From Flavobacteriales bacterium (lineage in GTDB: Bacteria; Bacteroidota; Bacteroidia; NS11-12g; UBA955): DNA of 64,000 nucleotides. How positions within the stretch are numbered: position 1 is the stretch's first letter; each line of letters starts with the position of its first letter. The notes under the pieces are model-generated. The model searched no databases. It was not told the DNA's origin and was given only the letters and a program-made list of their open reading frames with translations. Positions 18,474 through 27,049 of this stretch are shown here, piece by piece. The translations under genes and the position numbers were made by a program. The stretch covers positions 1,243 to 65,242 of the forward strand of contig CANHQZ010000008.1 in the NCBI GenBank assembly GCA_947463125.1, read 5' to 3'.

Positions 18474-20859
18474 CCGGATCGGTTTCGTGCATCATGGCAT
18501 ACACCTTCATGAATATTTCATCAACACCGGGTTTGCTGAAATAGTCACCATCAGTGCCATAGGCCGGCCTGTGGGGCTGCGCGGCGATGGTGAGCGGAGC
18601 GCTGTCGAGGTAGCGGTAACCGCCCTGTTTTTCCAGTATCTGCTGCAATATAAACGCCGATGCACCGCCGGGCACATCTTCATCCAGCACCACCAAACGG
18701 TTGGTTTCTTTCAGGCTCTCCACAATCAGGTGGTTCACATCAAAGGGCAGCAAGGTCTGCACATCGATAATCTCCAAACGAATGCCATGTTCGGCCAGCA
18801 TATCTGCTGCTTCCAGGGCTATGCGGCAACAGCTGCCGTAGGTTACCAGCGTGGCATGTTCGCCGTAGCGCAATGTATCCGGACGGCCCAGCGGCACGGT
18901 AAACTCGTCCATATTCTGGGGCAGTTTTTCCTTGATACGGTAACCGTTCAGGCATTCCACCACCAGGGCGGGTTCGTCGCTTTTCAGCAGGGTATTGTAC
19001 ATGCCTGCAGCCTGGGTCATGTTGCGGGGCACACACACGTGCATGCCGCGCACCGCATGGATGATGGTTCCCATGGGGCTTCCGCTGTGCCATATGCCTT
19101 CCAGCCTGTGGCCACGGGTACGGATAATCACCGGTGCTTTTTGTCCGCCTTTGGTGCGGTATTGCAGCGTAGCTATATCATCGCTCATCACTTCCAGCGC
19201 ATAGAGCAGGTAATCGAGGTACTGTATTTCGGCGATGGGGCGCAGGCCGCGCATGGAAGCGCCGAGGCCCTCTCCTACTATGCTCCACTCACGGATGCCT
19301 TTATCGGTCACGCGAAGTTCGCCGTATTTCTCCTGTAAACCACTGAATCCCTGGTTCACATCTCCGATTTTTCCCACGTCTTCGCCGAAGGCAAATACAC
19401 GCGGATCGCGCTGCATAGCCGCATCGAAGCATGCGCGCACCACCATGTAGCCATCCACGGTTTCATCGCTGAATTGGGGCGGCACTTCGGGCACCGAAAG
19501 CGCGCTGCCGGGGCCCTGGCTGTGCAGGTGGCTGCTGTAGCGGTTGTGGTTCAGTTCGGTAAAACGGCTGTAATAATACAGCAGGGGTTGCTTTTGCGCC
19601 GCATCCAGAGAAGCGGTGAGGCGCAACGCCTTGTGCAGTGCGTTTCCTATGTCTTTGCGCAAAGGATCGGATTTGCTTTGCAAACCTGCGCTGATTTCGG
19701 CAAACTCGGCGGTGGCAACACCCTGCGCGGCCATGTTGTTTATGATATCGCAAAAACCGGCCACCTCCGATTTGATGGTGCCCAGAAATGCGTTCCACGC
19801 GGCCTTTTGGGCGTCGCGCACGCTTTGCGTGGCTTCTTGTTCAATGGCATCGGCCTCTTCGGCAGTAGCCAGGTCATTGGCGATAAGCCATTCGCGCATT
19901 TTGGCAATACAATCATAATCCTGTTCCCATTCCAGGCGATCTTTGCTTTTGTAGCGCTCGTGGCTGCCGCTGGTGCTGTGGCCCTGGGGCTGGGTCACTT
20001 CGGTAACGTGCACCAGCACGGGGGTGTGCTTTTGGCGGCAAACGTCTGCGGCCTGTTTATACACTTTGCAGAGCTCGGCATAATCCCAGCCCTTCACGGT
20101 GAATATTTCCATGCCCTGCCCGAATTTGTCGGTCTGGAAGCCGCTGAGCAGGCGTGATATGTTTTCTTTGGCTGTTTGGTATTTGGCAGGCACGGAAATG
20201 CCGTAGCCATCGTCCCACACGCTCATCAGCAGGGGCACCTGCATCACGCAGGCGGCGTTCATGGTTTCCCAGAAGATGCCTTCGCTGGTACTGGCGTTGC
20301 CGATGGTGCCAAACGCGATTTCATTGCCTTTCAGCGAAAAATCGGTGTAGGCGTGCAGGGCGGGGTTTTCGCGGTATAACTTGCTTGCGAGTGCCAATCC
20401 CAGCAGGCGCGGCATTTGGCCTGCAGTGGGTGAAATATCGGCGCTGCAGTTGGGGCGATCGGTTTGGGGCAGCCAGTTGCCCTGCTCATCGAGCAGGCGG
20501 GTGGCAAAGTGCCCGTTCATGCTGCGGCCGCCGCTGGCGGGTTCGCGGTCGGTGTTGGGGTCGGCGTAGAGCTGGGCAAAGAATTGCTGCACGGTGCTCA
20601 TGCCGCGGGCAAACATGAAGGTTTGGTCGCGGTAGTAGCCGCTGCGCCAGTCGCCATTTTGAAACACTTTGGCCATGGCAATCTGTGCCACTTCTTTTCC
20701 ATCGCCGAAAATGCCGAATTTGGCTTTTCCGGTCAGCACTTCCTTTCGGCCCAGGAGACTTGCCTGACGGCTCTCACAGGCCATGCGGAAATCGTGGAGC
20801 ACCTGTTTGCGAAAGTCTTCCCTTGTTAGGGCTGCGGGGGCGTTGGCAGCATCTTCCAT
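18451..20859 (-). CDS. 2-oxoacid (branched-chain type) dehydrogenase E1, fused alpha/beta subunit
   Basis: GKAKFGIFGDGKE, SGYYRDQ, GNASTSEG, GHSTSGSH, FGEDVG and RPIAEIQY motifs; 802-aa TPP-dependent fusion. Confidence 0.93.
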   Translation of the reverse strand: MEDAANAPAALTREDFRKQVLHDFRMACESRQASLLGRKEVLTGKAKFGIFGDGKEVAQIAMAKVFQNGDWRSGYYRDQTFMFARGMSTVQQFFAQLYADPNTDREPASGGRSMNGHFATRLLDEQGNWLPQTDRPNCSADISPTAGQMPRLLGLALASKLYRENPALHAYTDFSLKGNEIAFGTIGNASTSEGIFWETMNAACVMQVPLLMSVWDDGYGISVPAKYQTAKENISRLLSGFQTDKFGQGMEIFTVKGWDYAELCKVYKQAADVCRQKHTPVLVHVTEVTQPQGHSTSGSHERYKSKDRLEWEQDYDCIAKMREWLIANDLATAEEADAIEQEATQSVRDAQKAAWNAFLGTIKSEVAGFCDIINNMAAQGVATAEFAEISAGLQSKSDPLRKDIGNALHKALRLTASLDAAQKQPLLYYYSRFTELNHNRYSSHLHSQGPGSALSVPEVPPQFSDETVDGYMVVRACFDAAMQRDPRVFAFGEDVGKIGDVNQGFSGLQEKYGELRVTDKGIREWSIVGEGLGASMRGLRPIAEIQYLDYLLYALEVMSDDIATLQYRTKGGQKAPVIIRTRGHRLEGIWHSGSPMGTIIHAVRGMHVCVPRNMTQAAGMYNTLLKSDEPALVVECLNGYRIKEKLPQNMDEFTVPLGRPDTLRYGEHATLVTYGSCCRIALEAADMLAEHGIRLEIIDVQTLLPFDVNHLIVESLKETNRLVVLDEDVPGGASAFILQQILEKQGGYRYLDSAPLTIAAQPHRPAYGTDGDYFSKPGVDEIFMKVYAMMHETDPVTWPALL

Positions 20860-20895
20860 TTGTGGTGCAAAAATACGGCTTTTTCTATTACGGGA

Positions 20896-21015
20896 TTACT
20901 TCTTGCGGCGCAGCCACCATGCCAGGCCTATTCCCATGATGGCGCCGAAGAGAATGGGCAGCCAATAGTTGGGTTCACGAGACTGAGTTTGCAGGATGAT
21001 GGCGGTTAGGGGCAT
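20896..21015 (-). CDS. Small single-pass membrane protein (39 aa)
   Basis: Manual translation MPLTAIILQTQSREPNYWLPILFGAIMGIGLAWWLRRKK; TACCTTTG box 4 nt upstream; TM helix followed by a basic tail. Confidence 0.65.
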   Translation of the reverse strand: MPLTAIILQTQSREPNYWLPILFGAIMGIGLAWWLRRKK

Positions 21016-21064
21016 GGTGCAAAGGTAGGGCGGAGCGTATTTAATAGAACAATGCCTTTTGGGA

Positions 21065-21450
21065 TTATTCTATCCATTCAAACAGGTAATTGTCCTCAAA
21101 TTCAACATTGAATTTCTGCAACATTTCGTGGTATTCATCGTTTGAATTTTGTTTGGCTGTGATGTTTCTCCTGGTTGTTAATGTAATTTATGATGGTAAC
21201 GCATTGGGAATGGGCGTAGGGAAAAGCCCCAAAACCGCTCTGCCATTGAAATTTGCCGGGTATTCATTTTTTTATTGATCCATTTGGAAGAATTGGCTTT
21301 GATGTCTTTCACAATTTCTGACAAGCATTTATCGGGACTCAGGCTGAGCAATATGTGAATGTGGTCTGCTACCCCACCGATGGCATATATCTTTTGATTT
21401 TTGCCGTTTACCGTACCGCAGATGTATTTATACAATTCGTAAACCAAGGA
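21065..21450 (-). pseudogene. IS200/IS605-family (Y1 HUH) transposase pseudogene
   Basis: Frame 1 has ELYKYICG...DHIHIL...IKANSSKWIN. After a frameshift comes FQWQSGFGAF...NYINNQEKHH, and after a second one DEYHEMLQKFNVEFEDNYLFEWIE*. The N-terminus is missing. Confidence 0.88.
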
Positions 21451-21588
21451 ACGGAACCTACATTTGCAGGTATCATTCTGTTATTTCTGTTCTATTCATC
21501 ATGGGTATAATAAAAATGCCGGGAGCATTGCAGTTATCAAGGCCTCCGTTTTTTTATGCATCTTTGCAGGCAATAAAAAGTAGCAGGA

Positions 21589-22233
21589 TTGGAGCCAACA
21601 TTTCACATAATCGAAAATATTCATTCCGCTAATTTCCGCGCGGCAACAGACATTTACATACAGTCCTTTCCTGCCAATGAAAGGCAGCCATTGTCGGTAA
21701 TTGAACAGCGGGTGAAAGATGGATTATCGCTCATGTTCACCGCAGAACTCGAGAATAAAACCCTGGCATTTGGATTGCTCTGGCCATTTCAAAACAGCCA
21801 ATTTATTTTGCTGGATTACCTGGCAGTTGCCCCGGGTAACAGGCAAAGCAATTTGGGCTCGGCCCTTTTCAGATACATGGCAAAATTGGTAAATGACCAA
21901 GGAAAAACCCTGGTTATTGAAACAGAGCATCCTGCTTATGGTGATAACCGGGAAGAACGACAGAAACGCCTGGCTTTTTATTTTAAAAATGGCTGTTACC
22001 TACTTAAAGATGTTCCTTACATATTGCCACCTTTGGATGGTTCTATGCCCACAGAAATGTGCATTATGGTTCATCCGCCTCATGGCCGGCACAATTTCCC
22101 CCCTGAGGAAATCAAAGTTCTCATTATACGTTTGTATGAAGAGTTGTACGGAAGGGATGAAAATGATGCCATTCTGCAAAATTTTATTCATAAATTGCCG
22201 ACCGAAATAATCCTCTCAAAAAGCATATCATGA
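21589..22233 (+). CDS. GNAT-family N-acetyltransferase
   Basis: SFPANERQP, LLDYLAVAPGNRQSNLGSALF (acetyl-CoA motif A) and RLAFYFKNG. Confidence 0.85.
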   Translation: MEPTFHIIENIHSANFRAATDIYIQSFPANERQPLSVIEQRVKDGLSLMFTAELENKTLAFGLLWPFQNSQFILLDYLAVAPGNRQSNLGSALFRYMAKLVNDQGKTLVIETEHPAYGDNREERQKRLAFYFKNGCYLLKDVPYILPPLDGSMPTEMCIMVHPPHGRHNFPPEEIKVLIIRLYEELYGRDENDAILQNFIHKLPTEIILSKSIS

Positions 22234-22664
22234 CCACGGTTGAGTTACTGAACTTTATTGTCACTTCGCTATCTACACTTTTATCGGCCATAGCTATATT
22301 TTTATATATCGTTTTATGGTATAAAGACAAAACACATAGCAATTATGATGTTTTTGATGCCACCTATCTTGATATATTAAAAACGGGCATGGACAATCCT
22401 GAATTCAGAAATCCAACTTACACCAAAAACTACAAAAATCTAGCGGATAACGAAAGAATCCGTTACGAAACCTATGCGTTTATTTGCTGGAATTTTTGTG
22501 AAACAATTGTAGATAAGGGCGATAAAAACTTAATGAAAACATGGGGCGTGGTAATTGAAGCTGAAAACGCGCTTCACCGCACCTGGTTTGACAGTCCGGA
22601 AAATAAAAGCAAGTTTAAGGAAGAGTTCATAACCTACATTGCAAACAATTACAAGGCAGTGTAA
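22230..22664 (+). CDS. Hypothetical protein with an N-terminal TM helix and a helical domain
   Basis: 144-aa ORF overlapping the GNAT stop (ATGA); hydrophobic residues about 5-31; no recognisable catalytic motif. Confidence 0.7.
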   Translation: MTTVELLNFIVTSLSTLLSAIAIFLYIVLWYKDKTHSNYDVFDATYLDILKTGMDNPEFRNPTYTKNYKNLADNERIRYETYAFICWNFCETIVDKGDKNLMKTWGVVIEAENALHRTWFDSPENKSKFKEEFITYIANNYKAV

Positions 22665-22756
22665 CTGCATTGGCATAGTCCCCAAACGAATTAAATAAAC
22701 ATTGGTTTAATTATTATTGGGTGAATTACAATATCTACAACGCCCAAAGGTGATAC

Positions 22757-24949
22757 CTAACGTTTATAATTTATATCGTTTCCAATAACTTTTATAAAAA
22801 CACCAACCACCTTTAAGTTTATAGTTCCTTCATCACGTAAAATAATTGGAGGATAATAATTACTTGACCTGGGCAGCAAAGTTATTTCCTCATGTTTCCA
22901 TCCTTCTTCAGAGACCGTCTTCTTGCTTGTGTATTCTTTAACAGTATAATTTGATCCTGTATCAGAATCATTAAAATCCGTCATTTCCACCAATACTATT
23001 TTACCATTTCTGCTTCCACCGATGTACCGTTCAAATAAACAAACTGAATTATTGGGAATAATCTTATTCATGGACTCACCAATGACCTTACAAGCAAAAT
23101 AATCTTTACCTAAATCAAAATCCTCTGTGAGTTCAATATATTTAGTGCTTTCAACTTGTTGCAACGAAGAAAATGAACCTGCAGCAATTTTAAGGTCATA
23201 ATACGGAATTGTGCGTTCAGTGGGAGCATCGACGATACTTATGACAGGAACATCTTTAACTTTTGTTTGTAACGGTATAAACTGTGTCAAATAATTTTTT
23301 AAATTATCATTCACTGCATAAATAAAGGTACCCTTTATACCTCTGAGTAGGATAGTTTTATAAATATTGACAATATATTCCTTTAAAATACTCTCGGCTG
23401 ATATGGTATTTTTACCAGCTTTATCTTTATAACGATCTTTATAAATAATAAACTGGTTGTTTTCAAAATCATAATCTATTTCAGGCCCTATAATCACACC
23501 GGTATAATTTAGATCATATCCCTGAGTGGTATGAATGCAACCAACCTCATTAATGGAATTGGGAGAATTTACCCAATCTACTGCCACACTATTCCATTTT
23601 AGCTTGACATTACTGATTTCTATATCAAATTTATTTTTATCTTTTTTAGAAACCCACTCCCACGCATAACCCGCAACAAGCCTTGAAAGTCCTTCTTTAT
23701 TTTCTTTTTCTGATATTTCATTGACTAAATCATCAATATTATCAAACAATTTTAATTCAAAATCTATTGCTTTAAAGGGATTTAAATTGTTTGTCTTAGC
23801 ATCAAATAAATTGTGTATAAAATTGACATAATTAACACCCCCTTTTGATCGAAACTGTGTTCTCAGAGTTTCAATCCGAGTTGATTTATTTTTTTCGAGA
23901 ATTATAAACCTTTCCCTCGGAACATCCGATGGTTTTATAGATTGAAACCGATCATAAAATATTAAACTTTTTTTTGACTGATGCAGCACCCAATCTAATT
24001 CAGTACAGGTAAATTTATCCATGCCGAATTTTTCTGATGTAATATCAAAAGGTTTAAAATATGGACCCAAATTAACCCGTTGTCTCAACCTATGACCTTC
24101 ATCCACAATAATCAAATCATACTTTTTCTTTGCTAAGTCAGATGGTCCTATTACCATGTCGCCTGACAGTCCCTTTATGTTTTTAAAAACCTTGGAAATG
24201 GTTTTACGGAATGATGCCATGGGAATAACCAGCGCCATGTTAAGATTAGAGTACTTCCTTTTAACCTTTTCAATTAATGTAAAAAGTTCTTCATCCTCAT
24301 CAAAATCTGATGTGTTAAAATCATCAAGATTGGTCTTTAAAAGTTTAAAAATGAAAATAGCGAGAATGGATTTACCTGTTCCGGCACCACCTTGTATAAG
24401 ACTGGTTTTGGCTTCCTCATCCAAAAGGCAGTTAAGAATCATTTTTAAGCTAGAAATTTGTTCTTGGGACAACGATTTATATGGAGAATATTTAAAAAGA
24501 TCTGAATTATCAATATGCTCTAGTGAATGACGTGCGATACCGAGACTTCTTAATTCATTCCAGATTTCTTTAAAAATATTCCAGTAAATTTCTTTTTGCT
24601 GATAATACCGGTGATTGGTAATGCCCAAATTTGCATTCTGCAAGGTGTAAATTCCATCAGCAGATATGTATCTGATTAGGTAAGATTCAAGGTCCAGTGC
24701 TACAGACTTGTTAAAGAGACTGCTTAAAACTAGATGTACTTTGGTGTTTTTCTGTTTCTGATGGTTCTTAACATGGGCCTTAAGCCTACTAACAACATCT
24801 GTTGTTTCTCCAACATATGCTTCTTGCGATTTTTCATTGTTAAGAAAATAAACTATAGGCCATGATAAAAATCCTCTATGATTTTCAGTTATTTCAATTT
24901 CTGTATTTGAATTGAAATCATATTGAAAAATAGAAAATTCTTTGTCCAT
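22757..24949 (-). CDS. GIY-YIG nuclease + DUF2075 (Schlafen group 3-like) helicase/ATPase + S24 (LexA-like) peptidase fusion protein
   Basis: N-terminal IVYFL..EAYVGET..SRLKAH..LESYLI..LQNAN; Walker A GGAGTGKS; Walker B IIVDEGHRL; HTTQGYDLNY and LLRGIKG; C-terminal IPYYDLKIAAG, VIGESMN and YTVKEY. Confidence 0.88.
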   Translation of the reverse strand: MDKEFSIFQYDFNSNTEIEITENHRGFLSWPIVYFLNNEKSQEAYVGETTDVVSRLKAHVKNHQKQKNTKVHLVLSSLFNKSVALDLESYLIRYISADGIYTLQNANLGITNHRYYQQKEIYWNIFKEIWNELRSLGIARHSLEHIDNSDLFKYSPYKSLSQEQISSLKMILNCLLDEEAKTSLIQGGAGTGKSILAIFIFKLLKTNLDDFNTSDFDEDEELFTLIEKVKRKYSNLNMALVIPMASFRKTISKVFKNIKGLSGDMVIGPSDLAKKKYDLIIVDEGHRLRQRVNLGPYFKPFDITSEKFGMDKFTCTELDWVLHQSKKSLIFYDRFQSIKPSDVPRERFIILEKNKSTRIETLRTQFRSKGGVNYVNFIHNLFDAKTNNLNPFKAIDFELKLFDNIDDLVNEISEKENKEGLSRLVAGYAWEWVSKKDKNKFDIEISNVKLKWNSVAVDWVNSPNSINEVGCIHTTQGYDLNYTGVIIGPEIDYDFENNQFIIYKDRYKDKAGKNTISAESILKEYIVNIYKTILLRGIKGTFIYAVNDNLKNYLTQFIPLQTKVKDVPVISIVDAPTERTIPYYDLKIAAGSFSSLQQVESTKYIELTEDFDLGKDYFACKVIGESMNKIIPNNSVCLFERYIGGSRNGKIVLVEMTDFNDSDTGSNYTVKEYTSKKTVSEEGWKHEEITLLPRSSNYYPPIILRDEGTINLKVVGVFIKVIGNDINYKR

Positions 24950-25279
24950 TTATAACTCATTATATTTTTTTGCTGTTCCTTTTGCTTTTTCAACTGGATA
25001 CTTCTCACCATTTTTTCTAACTTTTTCTAATACAATATCCTTTACATCAAGATTATATTTATCGGCTAACAAAAACGCATAGGCAAAAACATCTGCTAAT
25101 TCTTCTTTTATTTTTTCAGGATTAGCCTCCCCGGCATTTTTCCAAAGAAACAACTCCAATAATTCTCCTGCTTCGACATTAACCGCGAGCGCTAAATCTT
25201 TGGGATTATGAAACTGTTCCCAGTCTCTTTCATTTCGAAATTTTATTAATGCCTCAGTTATTTGTGAAAAATCACTCAT
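24950..25279 (-). CDS. MazG-like nucleotide pyrophosphohydrolase
   Basis: FRNERDWEQFHNPKDLA, EAGELLE...EELADV (ExxE...ExxD) and KNGEKYP. Confidence 0.93.
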   Translation of the reverse strand: MSDFSQITEALIKFRNERDWEQFHNPKDLALAVNVEAGELLELFLWKNAGEANPEKIKEELADVFAYAFLLADKYNLDVKDIVLEKVRKNGEKYPVEKAKGTAKKYNEL

Positions 25280-25284
25280 ACACG

Positions 25285-25292
25285 CAAAAGTA
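25285..25292 (-). promoter_or_regulatory. -7 promoter box (TACTTTTG) for the MazG-helicase operon
   Basis: Exact TAnnTTTG, 5 nt upstream of the MazG ATG. Confidence 0.7.
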
Positions 25293-25454
25293 ATGAAGTA
25301 GTTGCTATACCTTAGCGAATGTTTCTCTTAAAATAATAAACGATACTTCACTCAGTTACACCACATACCCAAAAATTAACTCGGGCTTGGCGAAGGGTTC
25401 ATGCTTCGGCGGGCTCGGCAGGACAATTTCGGTGGGCAATCGCTCAAAATCAGG

Positions 25455-25499
25455 CTTGTTGGTCTCGCCCCGCGCAGGCCTTCAGCAAAGACCAACAAG
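25455..25499. repeat. REP-like hairpin with an 11-bp perfect inverted repeat
   Basis: CTTGTTGGTCT (25455-25465) ... AGACCAACAAG (25489-25499). Confidence 0.7.
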
Positions 25500-25527
25500 G
25501 GGAATCTAAAAGATCACCGGCAACAAA

Positions 25528-25689
25528 CGGTCCCCTCTGGAGAGGGGTAATTGTGAGGTAATCGAAATCAGTGGCAATGTCTGGGGTGTGTTTTTCTGCA
25601 TTTACAATCACACGCCCACCGCACACACACCCCAGCGGGTGAGCACCGGCAGCGCGTATGGCGCATTTACCCCTCTCAAGAGGGGACCG
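25528..25689. repeat. Nested palindromic REP/MITE-like element
   Basis: 23-bp terminal inverted repeats with 1 mismatch: CGGTCCCCTCTGGAGAGGGGTAA and TTACCCCTCTCAAGAGGGGACCG, each itself a hairpin. Inner IR CTGGGGTGTGT / ACACACCCCAG. Confidence 0.85.
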
Positions 25690-25783
25690 GTGAAGCGCAA
25701 AAGCAATGTATTACAGCGGGTTTATGTTACAATCTGAGATGCACAATGGTGCGTCTTTACAGGGGCAGGTTATTCAACACTCC

Positions 25784-27049
25784 TCACAGCATCATCCGCA
25801 CCGAAGCATAGGCTCCGAAACCGTTCAGCCTGCCGGGCAGTACCAGGCTTTCCAGGCCTTCCAATCGCAGGTTTGCAAACAAGCCGCCGCGCTGCATGGC
25901 TTTCCAGCTCCAGCTGCTCAGCAACCCAATATTCCAGGTATCAAACCCGCCCAACGATACGCAGGGATAAAACCGCAGATTACCCACTCCCAGCCTGGTA
26001 TTGGGCTGCCAATCCAAGCGGGGCACGTAGCCGGGCAAGTTCCTGTAGCTGAGCGATAACCAGCCCAAATGCTTGTGCAGCGCGCCTACACTCACTTCAA
26101 ACGGCGCAAACAGGGTTTTGCTACTTCGGCTGCTGTCGAGACCAAGCTGCTGTTTTACGGTGTCTACGCGGTCGCCAAACCAGTCGCCGCGGAATATTTT
26201 GTTGAGGGATGTGGTAGCTGCTTCCAAACGCACCGTGCTGCCGGCCATGCCGGGCAAGCGGCTGTAGGTGGTGAGCCCGCGGGTGTAATACAATCCTGCA
26301 TTATCGACATTCAGGCTTATCAACTGCCAGGGACCCTTGGTAAAATCATACATGAGCCCCGCATTGACAGTAAGGCCAAAACCGCCTGTGGCACGCTGCA
26401 CACTTCCGCCCCACATTACGTTCACGTTCTGGGCCAGTGTATCGGTAAACACCTGCGCCCTGAAATCATTCACTGCGCTATAGGATCGCAACCACCCGGG
26501 ATTGATGCTGCCATTAAGGATTACATTGCCTTTGCCGCTCTTCAGCCTCCGGCCTTTCTCAAACCCAAAGCCAAATTCCACCACATCCCACTGCACAGCC
26601 TTGCGGATGCGGGCATCCAGGGTTTGGCCCATGTAAGCCCCATTGCCTTGAAAAACCAGGCGGAAGGCATCATCGTTAAAACGAATACCGCCCATCTGGT
26701 GGCGACGCACATAGAACTTGTCCGCCACATTCAGTTTCATGGTGGAAGCCAGTCCGCCACGCACATTCGCTTTCAGGCGCTCTTCTGTTTCAGCAATGCG
26801 GTCCGTGGGAATATAACCGCCCAGCAGAAAACGGCCTGTAATGGCCAGCGGCATGCCCGGAGAACCGCTTTCGCTGTAGAAAGAAACCCCCAACGTTTTG
26901 CGGCGAATGGTAAAAACGGTGTCCCTGGTTGGCAACTGAACGGTCGGAACCACTTCCGGCGGCCGCATGGCCGTGCTGTCATCGATCTGTGCCTGCAGGG
27001 ATTGGGCTGCCAATAGCAATCCCATTAAACATTTAAAACTGTGCTTCAT
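25784..27049 (-). CDS. Hypothetical outer membrane beta-barrel protein (possibly DUF5723-like)
   Basis: Signal peptide; alternating amphipathic strands; LVFQGNGAYMGQT segment; C-terminal GFGAYASVRMML. Confidence 0.6.
   Translation of the reverse strand: MKHSFKCLMGLLLAAQSLQAQIDDSTAMRPPEVVPTVQLPTRDTVFTIRRKTLGVSFYSESGSPGMPLAITGRFLLGGYIPTDRIAETEERLKANVRGGLASTMKLNVADKFYVRRHQMGGIRFNDDAFRLVFQGNGAYMGQTLDARIRKAVQWDVVEFGFGFEKGRRLKSGKGNVILNGSINPGWLRSYSAVNDFRAQVFTDTLAQNVNVMWGGSVQRATGGFGLTVNAGLMYDFTKGPWQLISLNVDNAGLYYTRGLTTYSRLPGMAGSTVRLEAATTSLNKIFRGDWFGDRVDTVKQQLGLDSSRSSKTLFAPFEVSVGALHKHLGWLSLSYRNLPGYVPRLDWQPNTRLGVGNLRFYPCVSLGGFDTWNIGLLSSWSWKAMQRGGLFANLRLEGLESLVLPGRLNGFGAYASVRMML

Follow-up and report, generated by a model that had tools for sequence, protein, structure and literature searches.

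Proteins in which an N-terminal nuclease is joined to a DUF2075 helicase of superfamily 1B (SF1B) include Nhi, Nhi-like and AbiO, and the corresponding reports describe Nhi of Staphylococcus (Bari et al.) and Nhi-like (Millman et al.) as proven anti-phage DUF2075 nuclease-helicases (10.1101/776245, 10.1101/2022.05.11.491447). Enzymes of the SauUSI type are also ATP-dependent nuclease-helicases of defence islands, and for SauUSI itself cleavage of DNA carrying 5-methylcytosine (5mC) and 5-hydroxymethylcytosine (5hmC) is reported (PMC3141236). The present analysis concerns a 64,000-nucleotide (nt) stretch of contig CANHQZ010000008.1 of a Flavobacteriales bacterium (referred to below as the window, on whose full length all position numbers are based) and a two-gene cassette on its minus strand, made up of a gene for a MazG-like pyrophosphohydrolase and a gene for a protein of 730 amino acids (aa) with a GIY-YIG nuclease domain, a DUF2075 helicase domain and a C-terminal S24 peptidase domain. 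The cassette is apparently an uncharacterised and widespread variant of nuclease-helicase immunity, of a restriction-like kind that would work much as these enzymes do, but which we place outside Nhi, AbiO and SauUSI because it has a different nuclease, falls short of the PADLOC models and yielded no modified-base reader. Kinship with Nhi and AbiO, together with genomic context, makes a defence function probable, and the fuller proposal of a defence cassette with an autoproteolytic switch has about an even chance of being correct.

According to one paper, DUF2075 can be fused to GIY-YIG, with nothing further given there. MazG appears in the DefensePredictor paper as one of a set of predicted defence domains, none of them with experimental validation. 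A 2026 paper on bacterial Schlafen defence deals with the RNase domain and contains no mention of DUF2075, MazG, S24, GIY-YIG or LexA. The original prediction, made from the letters of the window, knew of no mechanistic description of the three-domain form; none was found in the literature searched, nor was any published description of the architecture, the DefensePredictor supplements, which might show such a system, lying outside the coverage of that search.

The MazG and nuclease-helicase gene pair

The larger gene (22757..24949, minus strand, including the stop codon) encodes the 730-aa protein, in which Pfam calls were judged against curated cut-offs in bits. A GIY-YIG nuclease domain occupies aa 32–113 (24611..24856, minus strand; PF01541 over aa 32–93, 29.1 bits against a cut-off of 22.6), and a helicase core of the DUF2075 or Schlafen group-3 type covers aa 183–546 (23312..24403, minus strand; SLFN-g3_helicase/DUF2075, PF09848, 202 bits against 24, E = 2e-59). 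The C-terminus is an S24 domain of the LexA/UmuD type at aa 582–730 (22760..23206, minus strand; Peptidase_S24, PF00717, over aa 582–717, 31.9 bits against 23.3). Conservation was assessed in an alignment of 31 relatives at 64–89% identity (A1) and in a broader one of 36 rows reaching down to 34% identity (A2). Y34, Y45, G47, E48, R55, H59, E88 and N105/N107 of the GIY-YIG domain are invariant in the 31 relatives, as are Walker A (GGAGTGKS, G187–S194) and Walker B (D283–E284) of the helicase; Y34, Y45, G47, R55, H59, E88, N105 and the ATPase residues are still invariant in A2. The intact GIY-YIG, Walker A/B and S24 residues that had been named from the sequence of the window were thus borne out by invariance throughout A1.

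An AlphaFold2 (AF2) model of the protein had a mean predicted local distance difference test score (pLDDT) of 85 and a predicted TM-score (pTM) of 0.71. Its best Foldseek matches were UPF1, SLFN11, SLFN14, RecD/RecD2 and Dna2, which identifies the motor as SF1B. A sequence search of the Protein Data Bank (PDB) with the A1 profile gave no matches at E ≤ 0.01, nothing in NCBIfam exceeded its cut-off for either MazG or the 730-aa protein, and an N-terminal Schlafen RNase domain of the AlbA_2 type was absent by Pfam. PADLOC PDC-S14 gave no full-length match, as aa 28–113 aligned to profile positions 60–149 of 301, corresponding to the GIY-YIG domain alone.

The smaller gene (24950..25279, minus strand) encodes a 109-aa MazG-like, all-alpha nucleoside triphosphate (NTP) pyrophosphohydrolase (PF12643, 75.5 bits against a cut-off of 27, E = 4e-21) resembling deoxycytidine triphosphate (dCTP) pyrophosphatase 1 (DCTPP1). 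The metal ligands of its EXXE(12–28)EXXD motif (E36, E39, E60 and D63) are invariant in 31–32 orthologues, as are R15, R18, W20, H24, K27 and W46, and the closest solved structures are those of DCTPP1/RS21-C6 (E = 1e-19), with an identical ERDWEQFH block. DCTPP1 prefers 5-modified dCTP, and NudG of E. coli acts on 5-methyl-dCTP. On this homology we tentatively suggest that MazG may remove non-canonical, 5-modified dCTP.

The stop codon of MazG (TAA) directly abuts the ATG of the 730-aa gene, and this arrangement of two AT-rich open reading frames (ORFs), as first noted, was confirmed by ORF coordinates, GC content and direct reading. A scan of one genome per species found 165 relatives, of which the best 80 loci were kept, and MazG was sought in these by tblastn. 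The loci are nearly all from Bacteroidota (Chryseobacterium, Sphingobacterium, Pedobacter, Flavobacteriales, Chitinophagaceae, Saprospiraceae and others), and in every one of them (80/80) MazG lies directly upstream on the same strand, with a gap of 0 nt in 22 and of no more than 23 nt in 78. No third partner emerged from the 705 flanking ORFs, which formed 527 clusters, the largest represented in 6 of the 80 loci. Within the bacterial family of the source genome, 24 of 125 genomes carry this MazG, and every copy with enough downstream DNA directly precedes a DUF2075 ORF, recognised in 19 cases through similarity or a Pfam match; in two others the DNA covers no more than the unannotated N-terminus of another kind of DUF2075 protein (type B, described below), and three end at a contig edge. 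The pair of MazG and the 730-aa protein is obligate in the Bacteroidota loci, in keeping with the self-contained two-gene unit first proposed, for which MazG is always upstream and no third gene is conserved.

Across the 80 loci the similarities of MazG and of the helicase to the window proteins are discordant (Spearman −0.39, a descriptive value, the loci being related). Helicases 80% identical to that of the window come with a MazG only 55% identical, and the reverse is also seen, which indicates that alleles of the two genes have been reshuffled. Such reshuffling is easier to reconcile with two enzymes acting in parallel than with a complex whose members co-evolve tightly. Complex prediction for the 730-aa protein with MazG, run on our own alignments, returned a score of 0.00 against a mark of 0.32 and gives no verdict either way on binding. 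The discordance also suggests recombination between both genes. Separately, mnmE may mark a preferred site, with 5 of the 80 loci immediately downstream of it.

The wider family is large, with 6547 matches among 7999 scored candidates and 3128 clusters at 50% identity (E ≤ 0.001), and Bacteroidota of fresh water and soil commonly carry it. Among the best 150 representatives about 17 reach the S24 region and most end near aa 560, so the two-domain form, GIY-YIG plus DUF2075, is the majority. This form is found on megaplasmids of the Bacillus cereus group at ~34% identity; on pIS56-233 a gene annotated as 'nucleotide pyrophosphohydrolase', its product 57% identical to MazG of the window, lies just upstream. 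Among the listed Bacillus-group plasmids, which are related to one another, at least 50 of the 60 helicase records also appear in the 60 MazG records, and at least 46 carry both genes within 2.5 kb, so that the statement in the original prediction that MazG–DUF2075 pairs recur was correct and extends to Bacillota plasmids. A Paenibacillus plasmid copy lacks MazG. An unverified 'Bacteriophage sp.' contig of human faecal origin (MT836409.1, 3774–8632) has, in this order, genes for a SauUSI-like enzyme, MazG and GIY-YIG/DUF2075. The same string of three genes is present in two Pedobacter genomes (L039 and L042; 2431–8187). In a search with positions 20500–26500 of the window, the cassette had a word share of 90–100% in metagenomes that several studies had obtained from lakes, rivers and fresh water.

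The S24 domain and its occurrence on unrelated enzymes

Ser626 (in GESM) and Lys671 (in TVKEY) of the S24 domain form a Ser-Lys dyad that is invariant in the 31 relatives. The sequence ahead of the serine reads ...DLKIAA|GSF, with A590 invariant and G591 kept in at least 90% of the same relatives. The predicted self-cleavage site, A589-A590|G591 (23177..23185, minus strand), lies in a low-confidence loop, residues 587–600 being the sole stretch of the AF2 model with pLDDT below 50. Gly591 and Ser626 are 35 residues apart; in LexA the spacing from Gly85 to Ser119 is 34 residues. In a diverged set of 14 three-domain cluster representatives (37–50% identity to the query), AAG or ACG is kept in 12 and a thirteenth (P0139) has Cys-Gly in a different context, while G-x-SM and [TS]-x-K are kept in 13; in representative P0136 the site is gone and Arg stands in place of Lys. 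The ACG form recalls the cleavage site of UmuD, Cys24-Gly25. The C-terminal domain first recognised as LexA-type has therefore kept both the catalytic dyad and the canonical cleavage site, and recA is present in the source genome. This pattern of conservation tips the balance slightly towards self-cleavage at A590|G591, most simply on RecA bound to single-stranded DNA (ssDNA).

It would be very improbable, by our estimate, that the S24 domain is non-cleaving and provides only dimerisation or a RecA/ssDNA dock, or else that the whole cassette is a selfish element of the homing type, built on GIY-YIG and of no benefit to the host. LexA-type C-terminal domains do dimerise, and P0136, having lost the site and Lys, would suit a mere scaffold. 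However, 13 of the 14 diverged and all 31 close relatives have retained the Ser, the Lys and the Ala/Cys-Gly site as a set, which is unexpected for a scaffold-only domain. Matches of the GIY-YIG domain to homing and group I intron endonucleases, weak and below cut-off (PADLOC HEase, 2e-4; TIGR01453, 7.5e-3), would suit a homing element, but no intron, intein or target-site features were seen, and an obligate MazG partner is not a trait of homing endonucleases.

In a survey of the family genomes, matches to the C-terminal 180 residues alone fell into two groups. The first, type B, consists of 792-aa proteins with an unannotated N-terminus of ~260 aa (PADLOC PDC-S41, E = 9e-20) followed by DUF2075 and S24, the S24 motifs being AACG...GNSM (L107:3064-5768, L108 and L109; also G072:C91). 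Type B genes are preceded by a MazG 69–71% identical to that of the window (79% in G072). The second group comprises proteins of 1128 aa and of more than 900 aa in which a PLD nuclease, a superfamily 2 (SF2) helicase, DUF3427 and S24 follow one another (e.g. L105:2450-6224, in genome G013); in Bacteroidota, enzymes of the SauUSI type frequently end in such an S24 domain. The first 948 residues of the 1128-aa protein are an end-to-end match to the PADLOC type IV methyl-directed restriction enzyme (797 bits), and the S24 end is an extension of this SauUSI-like body with the motifs AAAG...GESM. The S24 domain of the window is 51.7% identical over 143 aa to the SauUSI-like S24 and 34.7% identical to that of type B, and it had no detectable match to the genome's own helix-turn-helix (HTH)-S24 repressor. 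This repressor, a 274-aa HTH_3-S24 protein, is the only other S24 protein of the source genome, and its gene directly follows that of a stand-alone 280-aa GIY-YIG protein (C54:5512-8781).

A search with the SauUSI-like S24 region returned 2322 proteins, the top 120 of which were almost all of the PLD-helicase-DUF3427 architecture and came from Bacteroidota and Ignavibacteria. With the S24 region of the window protein itself, the top 120 of 771 matches all belonged to its own family and no other architectures appeared among them. A gene for a 131-aa NUDIX protein (PADLOC PDC-S07) extends into the start of that for the 1128-aa protein, and in a phylum sample of 401 genomes NUDIX was directly upstream in 9 of 9 close SauUSI-like homologues, 7 with and 2 without S24. 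Two unrelated nuclease-helicases thus share one plan, in which a small (d)NTP pyrophosphohydrolase gene stands ahead and an optional, exchangeable S24 domain behind.

A broader generalisation, which we put forward as speculative and rather doubtful, is that S24 autoproteolysis may be a portable sensor of DNA damage, responding to RecA-ssDNA (RecA*), on at least three unrelated Bacteroidota nuclease-helicases (GIY-YIG/DUF2075, type B and SauUSI-like). It would make each enzyme destroy itself ('restriction alleviation') upon damage to the host chromosome, with MazG or NUDIX as a second guard against autoimmunity that would hydrolyse the modified dCTP set free when phage DNA is broken down and thereby prevent the host genome from ever becoming a substrate. 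If true, this would be a new regulatory principle of restriction-like immunity and a bacterial parallel to replication-stress sensing by Schlafen helicases.

Mobility and genomic neighbourhood

GC content is 31–36% across 22–25 kb of the window, against 47–57% on the flanks; the source genome (2.34 Mb, 98.9% complete) has 46.6% GC. Matches to the 730-aa protein at E ≤ 1e-20 are present in 25 of the 125 family genomes and in 3 of the 11 other genomes of the genus (4/12 with the source genome). The best match within the genus is 49% identical, while relatives at 78–80% identity occur in other families, e.g. in Sediminibacterium and Saprospiraceae. The low-GC island adjoins a gene for a 421-aa outer-membrane-type protein (om421) that is conserved in 10 of the 11 genus-mates, and the occupants beside it differ: in G072 a MazG 79% identical to that of the window with the different, type B DUF2075 protein, in G070 other low-GC cargo with a Y1 transposase, and in G069, G073 and G075 genes of ordinary GC and no island. 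The site is therefore a variable hotspot. In none of six genus-mates was the left-hand E1 dehydrogenase gene adjacent to the om421 orthologue, so that there is no clean empty site among them and exact insertion boundaries are not drawable. The cassette is horizontally acquired and mobile. Its patchy distribution, horizontal movement and variable hotspot agree with the defence-type context originally envisaged, and the vertical conservation at a core locus that would have spoken against defence was not seen (25/125 genomes).

Immediate neighbours of the 80 loci were compared with PADLOC at E ≤ 1e-8 (146 of 151, five being left out for size), with a control of 111 ORFs taken from the source genome in seven 20-kb segments chosen arbitrarily. 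PADLOC matched 31 of the 146 neighbours and 11 of the 111 control ORFs (Fisher odds ratio 2.45, p = 0.017, a p-value that overstates because the loci are related). Matches among the neighbours included type IV restriction enzymes (724 and 736 bits), DRT UG5-nitrilase (697), DndC (477), RhuM/PDC-S05 (474) and SoFic (404), in addition to PDC-S02, -S13 and -S26, a GmrSD-like protein, McrB-like ATPases (three times), an OLD/Gabija-like ATPase and AbiEii; three of the 31 were housekeeping look-alikes (PolA once and MnmE twice). All 11 control matches were housekeeping look-alikes (RecQ, DnaQ, DprA, three glycosidases, FtsH, IscS, a GTPase and an ABC ATPase among them). A SauUSI-like gene lies directly upstream of MazG in 2 of the 80 loci. 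The neighbourhood reads as defence-island-like, short of proof: of the enrichment originally expected around homologues, the presence of true defence genes stood, and the numerical contrast with the control was modest.

Several observations weigh against interpreting the cassette as a RecA-switched defence system aimed at modified cytosine. Measured against a control from one genome, the raw enrichment of neighbours comes to only about twofold, and housekeeping genes account for many of the neighbours (tRNA synthetases, PolA, MnmE, TonB receptors). PADLOC v2 contains no full-length model for either protein, and at E ≤ 0.01 neither its Nhi nor its AbiO model matched the 730-aa protein. Pfam detects no modified-base reader (DUF3427, SRA or PUA) in it, which leaves MazG homology and the NUDIX-SauUSI analogy as the two supports of the modified-cytosine link. 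Some S24 proteins cleave without RecA, according to one report (PMC7101444). In addition, sequence conservation is high for a defence gene (64–80% across orders), which could likewise be expected of a housekeeping or repair function disseminated by transfer.

This last point bears on an interpretation that we consider improbable, namely that the cassette is a horizontally spread module for the DNA-damage response or repair, without immunity, in which the nuclease-helicase, activated by damage, would process stalled forks or lesions and MazG would sanitise the deoxynucleoside triphosphate (dNTP) pool. S24 domains are typical of SOS proteins, GIY-YIG domains occur in repair nucleases (cf. UvrC and Slx1) and relatives of DCTPP1 are house-cleaning enzymes; the high conservation and the position of several loci beside housekeeping genes would also suit such a module. 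On the other hand, a repair function sits poorly with presence in only 25 of the 125 family and 4 of the 12 genus genomes, with discordant similarity, low GC and different variants at one site in genus-mates. Neighbours such as type IV restriction enzymes, DRT, Dnd and SoFic, an S24 module held in common with a bona fide restriction-enzyme family, and the occurrence of the pair on megaplasmids and a phage-like contig likewise speak for defence rather than repair.

Other features of the island lie around the cassette. A match to TAnnTTTG, which we take to be the Bacteroidota −7 promoter box, was read off the sequence 5 nt upstream of the MazG ATG (TACTTTTG, 25285..25292, minus strand); the upstream box first noted is thus present at 25292-25285(−), as a single 8-mer without statistical weight, and its position would imply a near-leaderless transcript. 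A sigma-70 promoter scan was at chance level (12 found, 12.1 expected), and of four terminator-like sites (1.8 expected) none was convincingly positioned after the operon. A metatranscriptome contig of 199 nt from one RNA run matches MazG (25016–25214, one difference), with the rest of the operon lacking RNA cover; DNA carry-over is possible and the contig was not used as evidence.

Mobile-element debris had been proposed on both sides of the cassette and was confirmed in part. At the left edge of the island, outside the module, lies a broken gene for an IS200-like Y1 transposase (21068..21447, minus strand; PF01797 on an 89-aa ORF), in pieces in three frames and lacking residues 1–29 of a 153-aa relative; the right edge is marked by a dispersed repeat of ~260 bp with palindromic parts (25448..25705, no strand assigned), also outside the module. 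An intact paralogue of the transposase is present on contig C11, and a 153-aa orthologue stands at the corresponding site in G070. Copies of the repeat were found by blastn on five other contigs (C65 at 89%; C36, C29 and C57 at 78–80%; and C7). The repeat (~180–260 bp) contains G+C-rich palindromes, e.g. CCCCTCTCCAGAGGGG, and may be of the repetitive extragenic palindromic (REP) or miniature inverted-repeat transposable element (MITE) kind; a relation to the Y1 transposase, in the manner of REP-associated tyrosine transposases (RAYT-like), is possible.

The low-GC island also has, at 21589–22664 on the plus strand, two genes that overlap stop to start, the first for a 214-aa GNAT acetyltransferase and the second for a 144-aa membrane protein with a weak PADLOC match to the Drt1b transmembrane (TM) partner (E = 2.5e-5). 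These two genes may form a separate small cargo operon. As third components of the cassette the 144-aa TM protein (22230–22664) and the GNAT protein (21589–22233) were ruled out, neither being present in any of the 80 loci. No use was made of a contig joint in run X8 that skips 20946–22735, one side of which comprises just 21 letters.

Proposed mechanism and relation to known systems

In the mechanism that we propose, the 730-aa protein would be the effector, its DUF2075 motor loading on and translocating along invading DNA while GIY-YIG cuts. RecA-ssDNA filaments formed upon DNA damage or stalled replication would induce S24 to cleave between A590 and G591, splitting the catalytic body (aa 1–590) from the S24 (dimerisation) domain. 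Cleavage would turn the enzyme off, as a built-in 'restriction alleviation' fail-safe against self-damage, and the new ...IAA C-terminus might serve as a LexA-like degron of the ClpXP type. A ClpXP signal was reportedly found by Neher et al. in 2003 to be uncovered on cleaved LexA, and restriction alleviation after DNA damage is known for EcoKI, through ClpXP. The co-translated MazG would act as a constitutive DCTPP1-like pyrophosphatase removing 5-modified dCTP, a sanitiser role that we favour because MazG is without a regulatory domain and its alleles reshuffle freely. It would either starve phages with modified cytosine or keep modified cytosine off the host chromosome, sparing the host from neighbouring type IV enzymes.

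As to the direction of the switch, our preference for cleavage as an off-signal over cleavage as an on-signal is a cautious one and falls short of an even chance. We lean towards it because one S24 module serves unrelated bodies, for which a generic effect (loss of the dimer, an exposed -IAA or -VAA tail) is likelier than tailored autoinhibition, because enzymes that lack S24 are functional and represent the usual form, and because damage-induced 'restriction alleviation' is an established need of restriction enzymes.

The opposite direction, which was that of the original prediction and which we regard as unlikely, would have S24 hold the nuclease-helicase inactive until RecA*, formed during phage replication or upon DNA damage, triggers self-cleavage and frees the enzyme against phage (perhaps also host) DNA, with MazG depleting dCTP as a second effector and abortive infection as the outcome. 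Cleavage of an S24 protein can activate, as in UmuD, and the Ser/Lys dyad and the site are conserved. Human Schlafen proteins add a parallel, in that the helicase domain activates SLFN11 upon ssDNA binding, as stated in one report (PMC13056530). Depletion of dNTPs is a known defence theme, and another source proposes a MazG-like phosphoesterase as an NTP-targeting effector (10.64898/2026.01.15.699771). Nevertheless, specific autoinhibitory contacts are harder to imagine for a domain common to GIY-YIG/SF1B and PLD/SF2/DUF3427 bodies. S24-less forms of both enzymes are common, SauUSI being active without S24 (PMC3141236), and a MazG without a regulatory domain would deplete dCTP constitutively.

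Compared with known systems, the cassette combines familiar parts in an apparently undescribed way. Nhi is a single gene without a peptidase, and its nuclease is of the PD-(D/E)XK type, whereas the cassette has GIY-YIG, an obligate MazG and a fused S24; the two-domain homologue from Bacillus does match the PADLOC models of Nhi (1e-10) and AbiO (4e-9). LexA, lambda CI and UmuD likewise have a Ser-Lys dyad, an Ala-Gly site in a flexible loop and an N-terminal 'business' part followed by a C-terminal protease, but here the N-terminal part is a 590-residue nuclease-helicase instead of a DNA-binding domain or polymerase subunit. DCTPP1/RS21-C6 and small MazG proteins of the integron type have the same all-alpha core of ~110 residues with EXXE...EXXD; unlike DCTPP1, the MazG of the cassette is a mobile bacterial protein whose translation is coupled to that of a nuclease-helicase. 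In SauUSI the nuclease and helicase folds are unrelated to those of the 730-aa protein, and the link to the Bacteroidota forms with S24 and an upstream NUDIX lies in the S24 module and gene neighbourhood only.

Three features are apparently new to description: the obligate DCTPP1-like MazG partner, the fusion of a LexA-type self-cleaving domain to an effector, and the presence of the same peptidase module on SauUSI-like enzymes with a NUDIX partner. Should the peptidase prove responsive to RecA filaments, restriction-type immunity would be wired directly and post-translationally to the DNA-damage signal, whether as trigger or as safety cut-out. Finally, one Pfam family includes both the helicase domain of the cassette and that of the human Schlafen group III proteins (SLFN11, SLFN5, SLFN13 and SLFN14), and SLFN helicases and the cassette are both linked to replication stress and ssDNA. 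The 730-aa protein differs from these in being without the Schlafen RNase (AlbA_2) domain, only the group-3 helicase domain being common to both, and it is through this domain that the cassette ties bacterial biology to human antiviral and replication-stress proteins.

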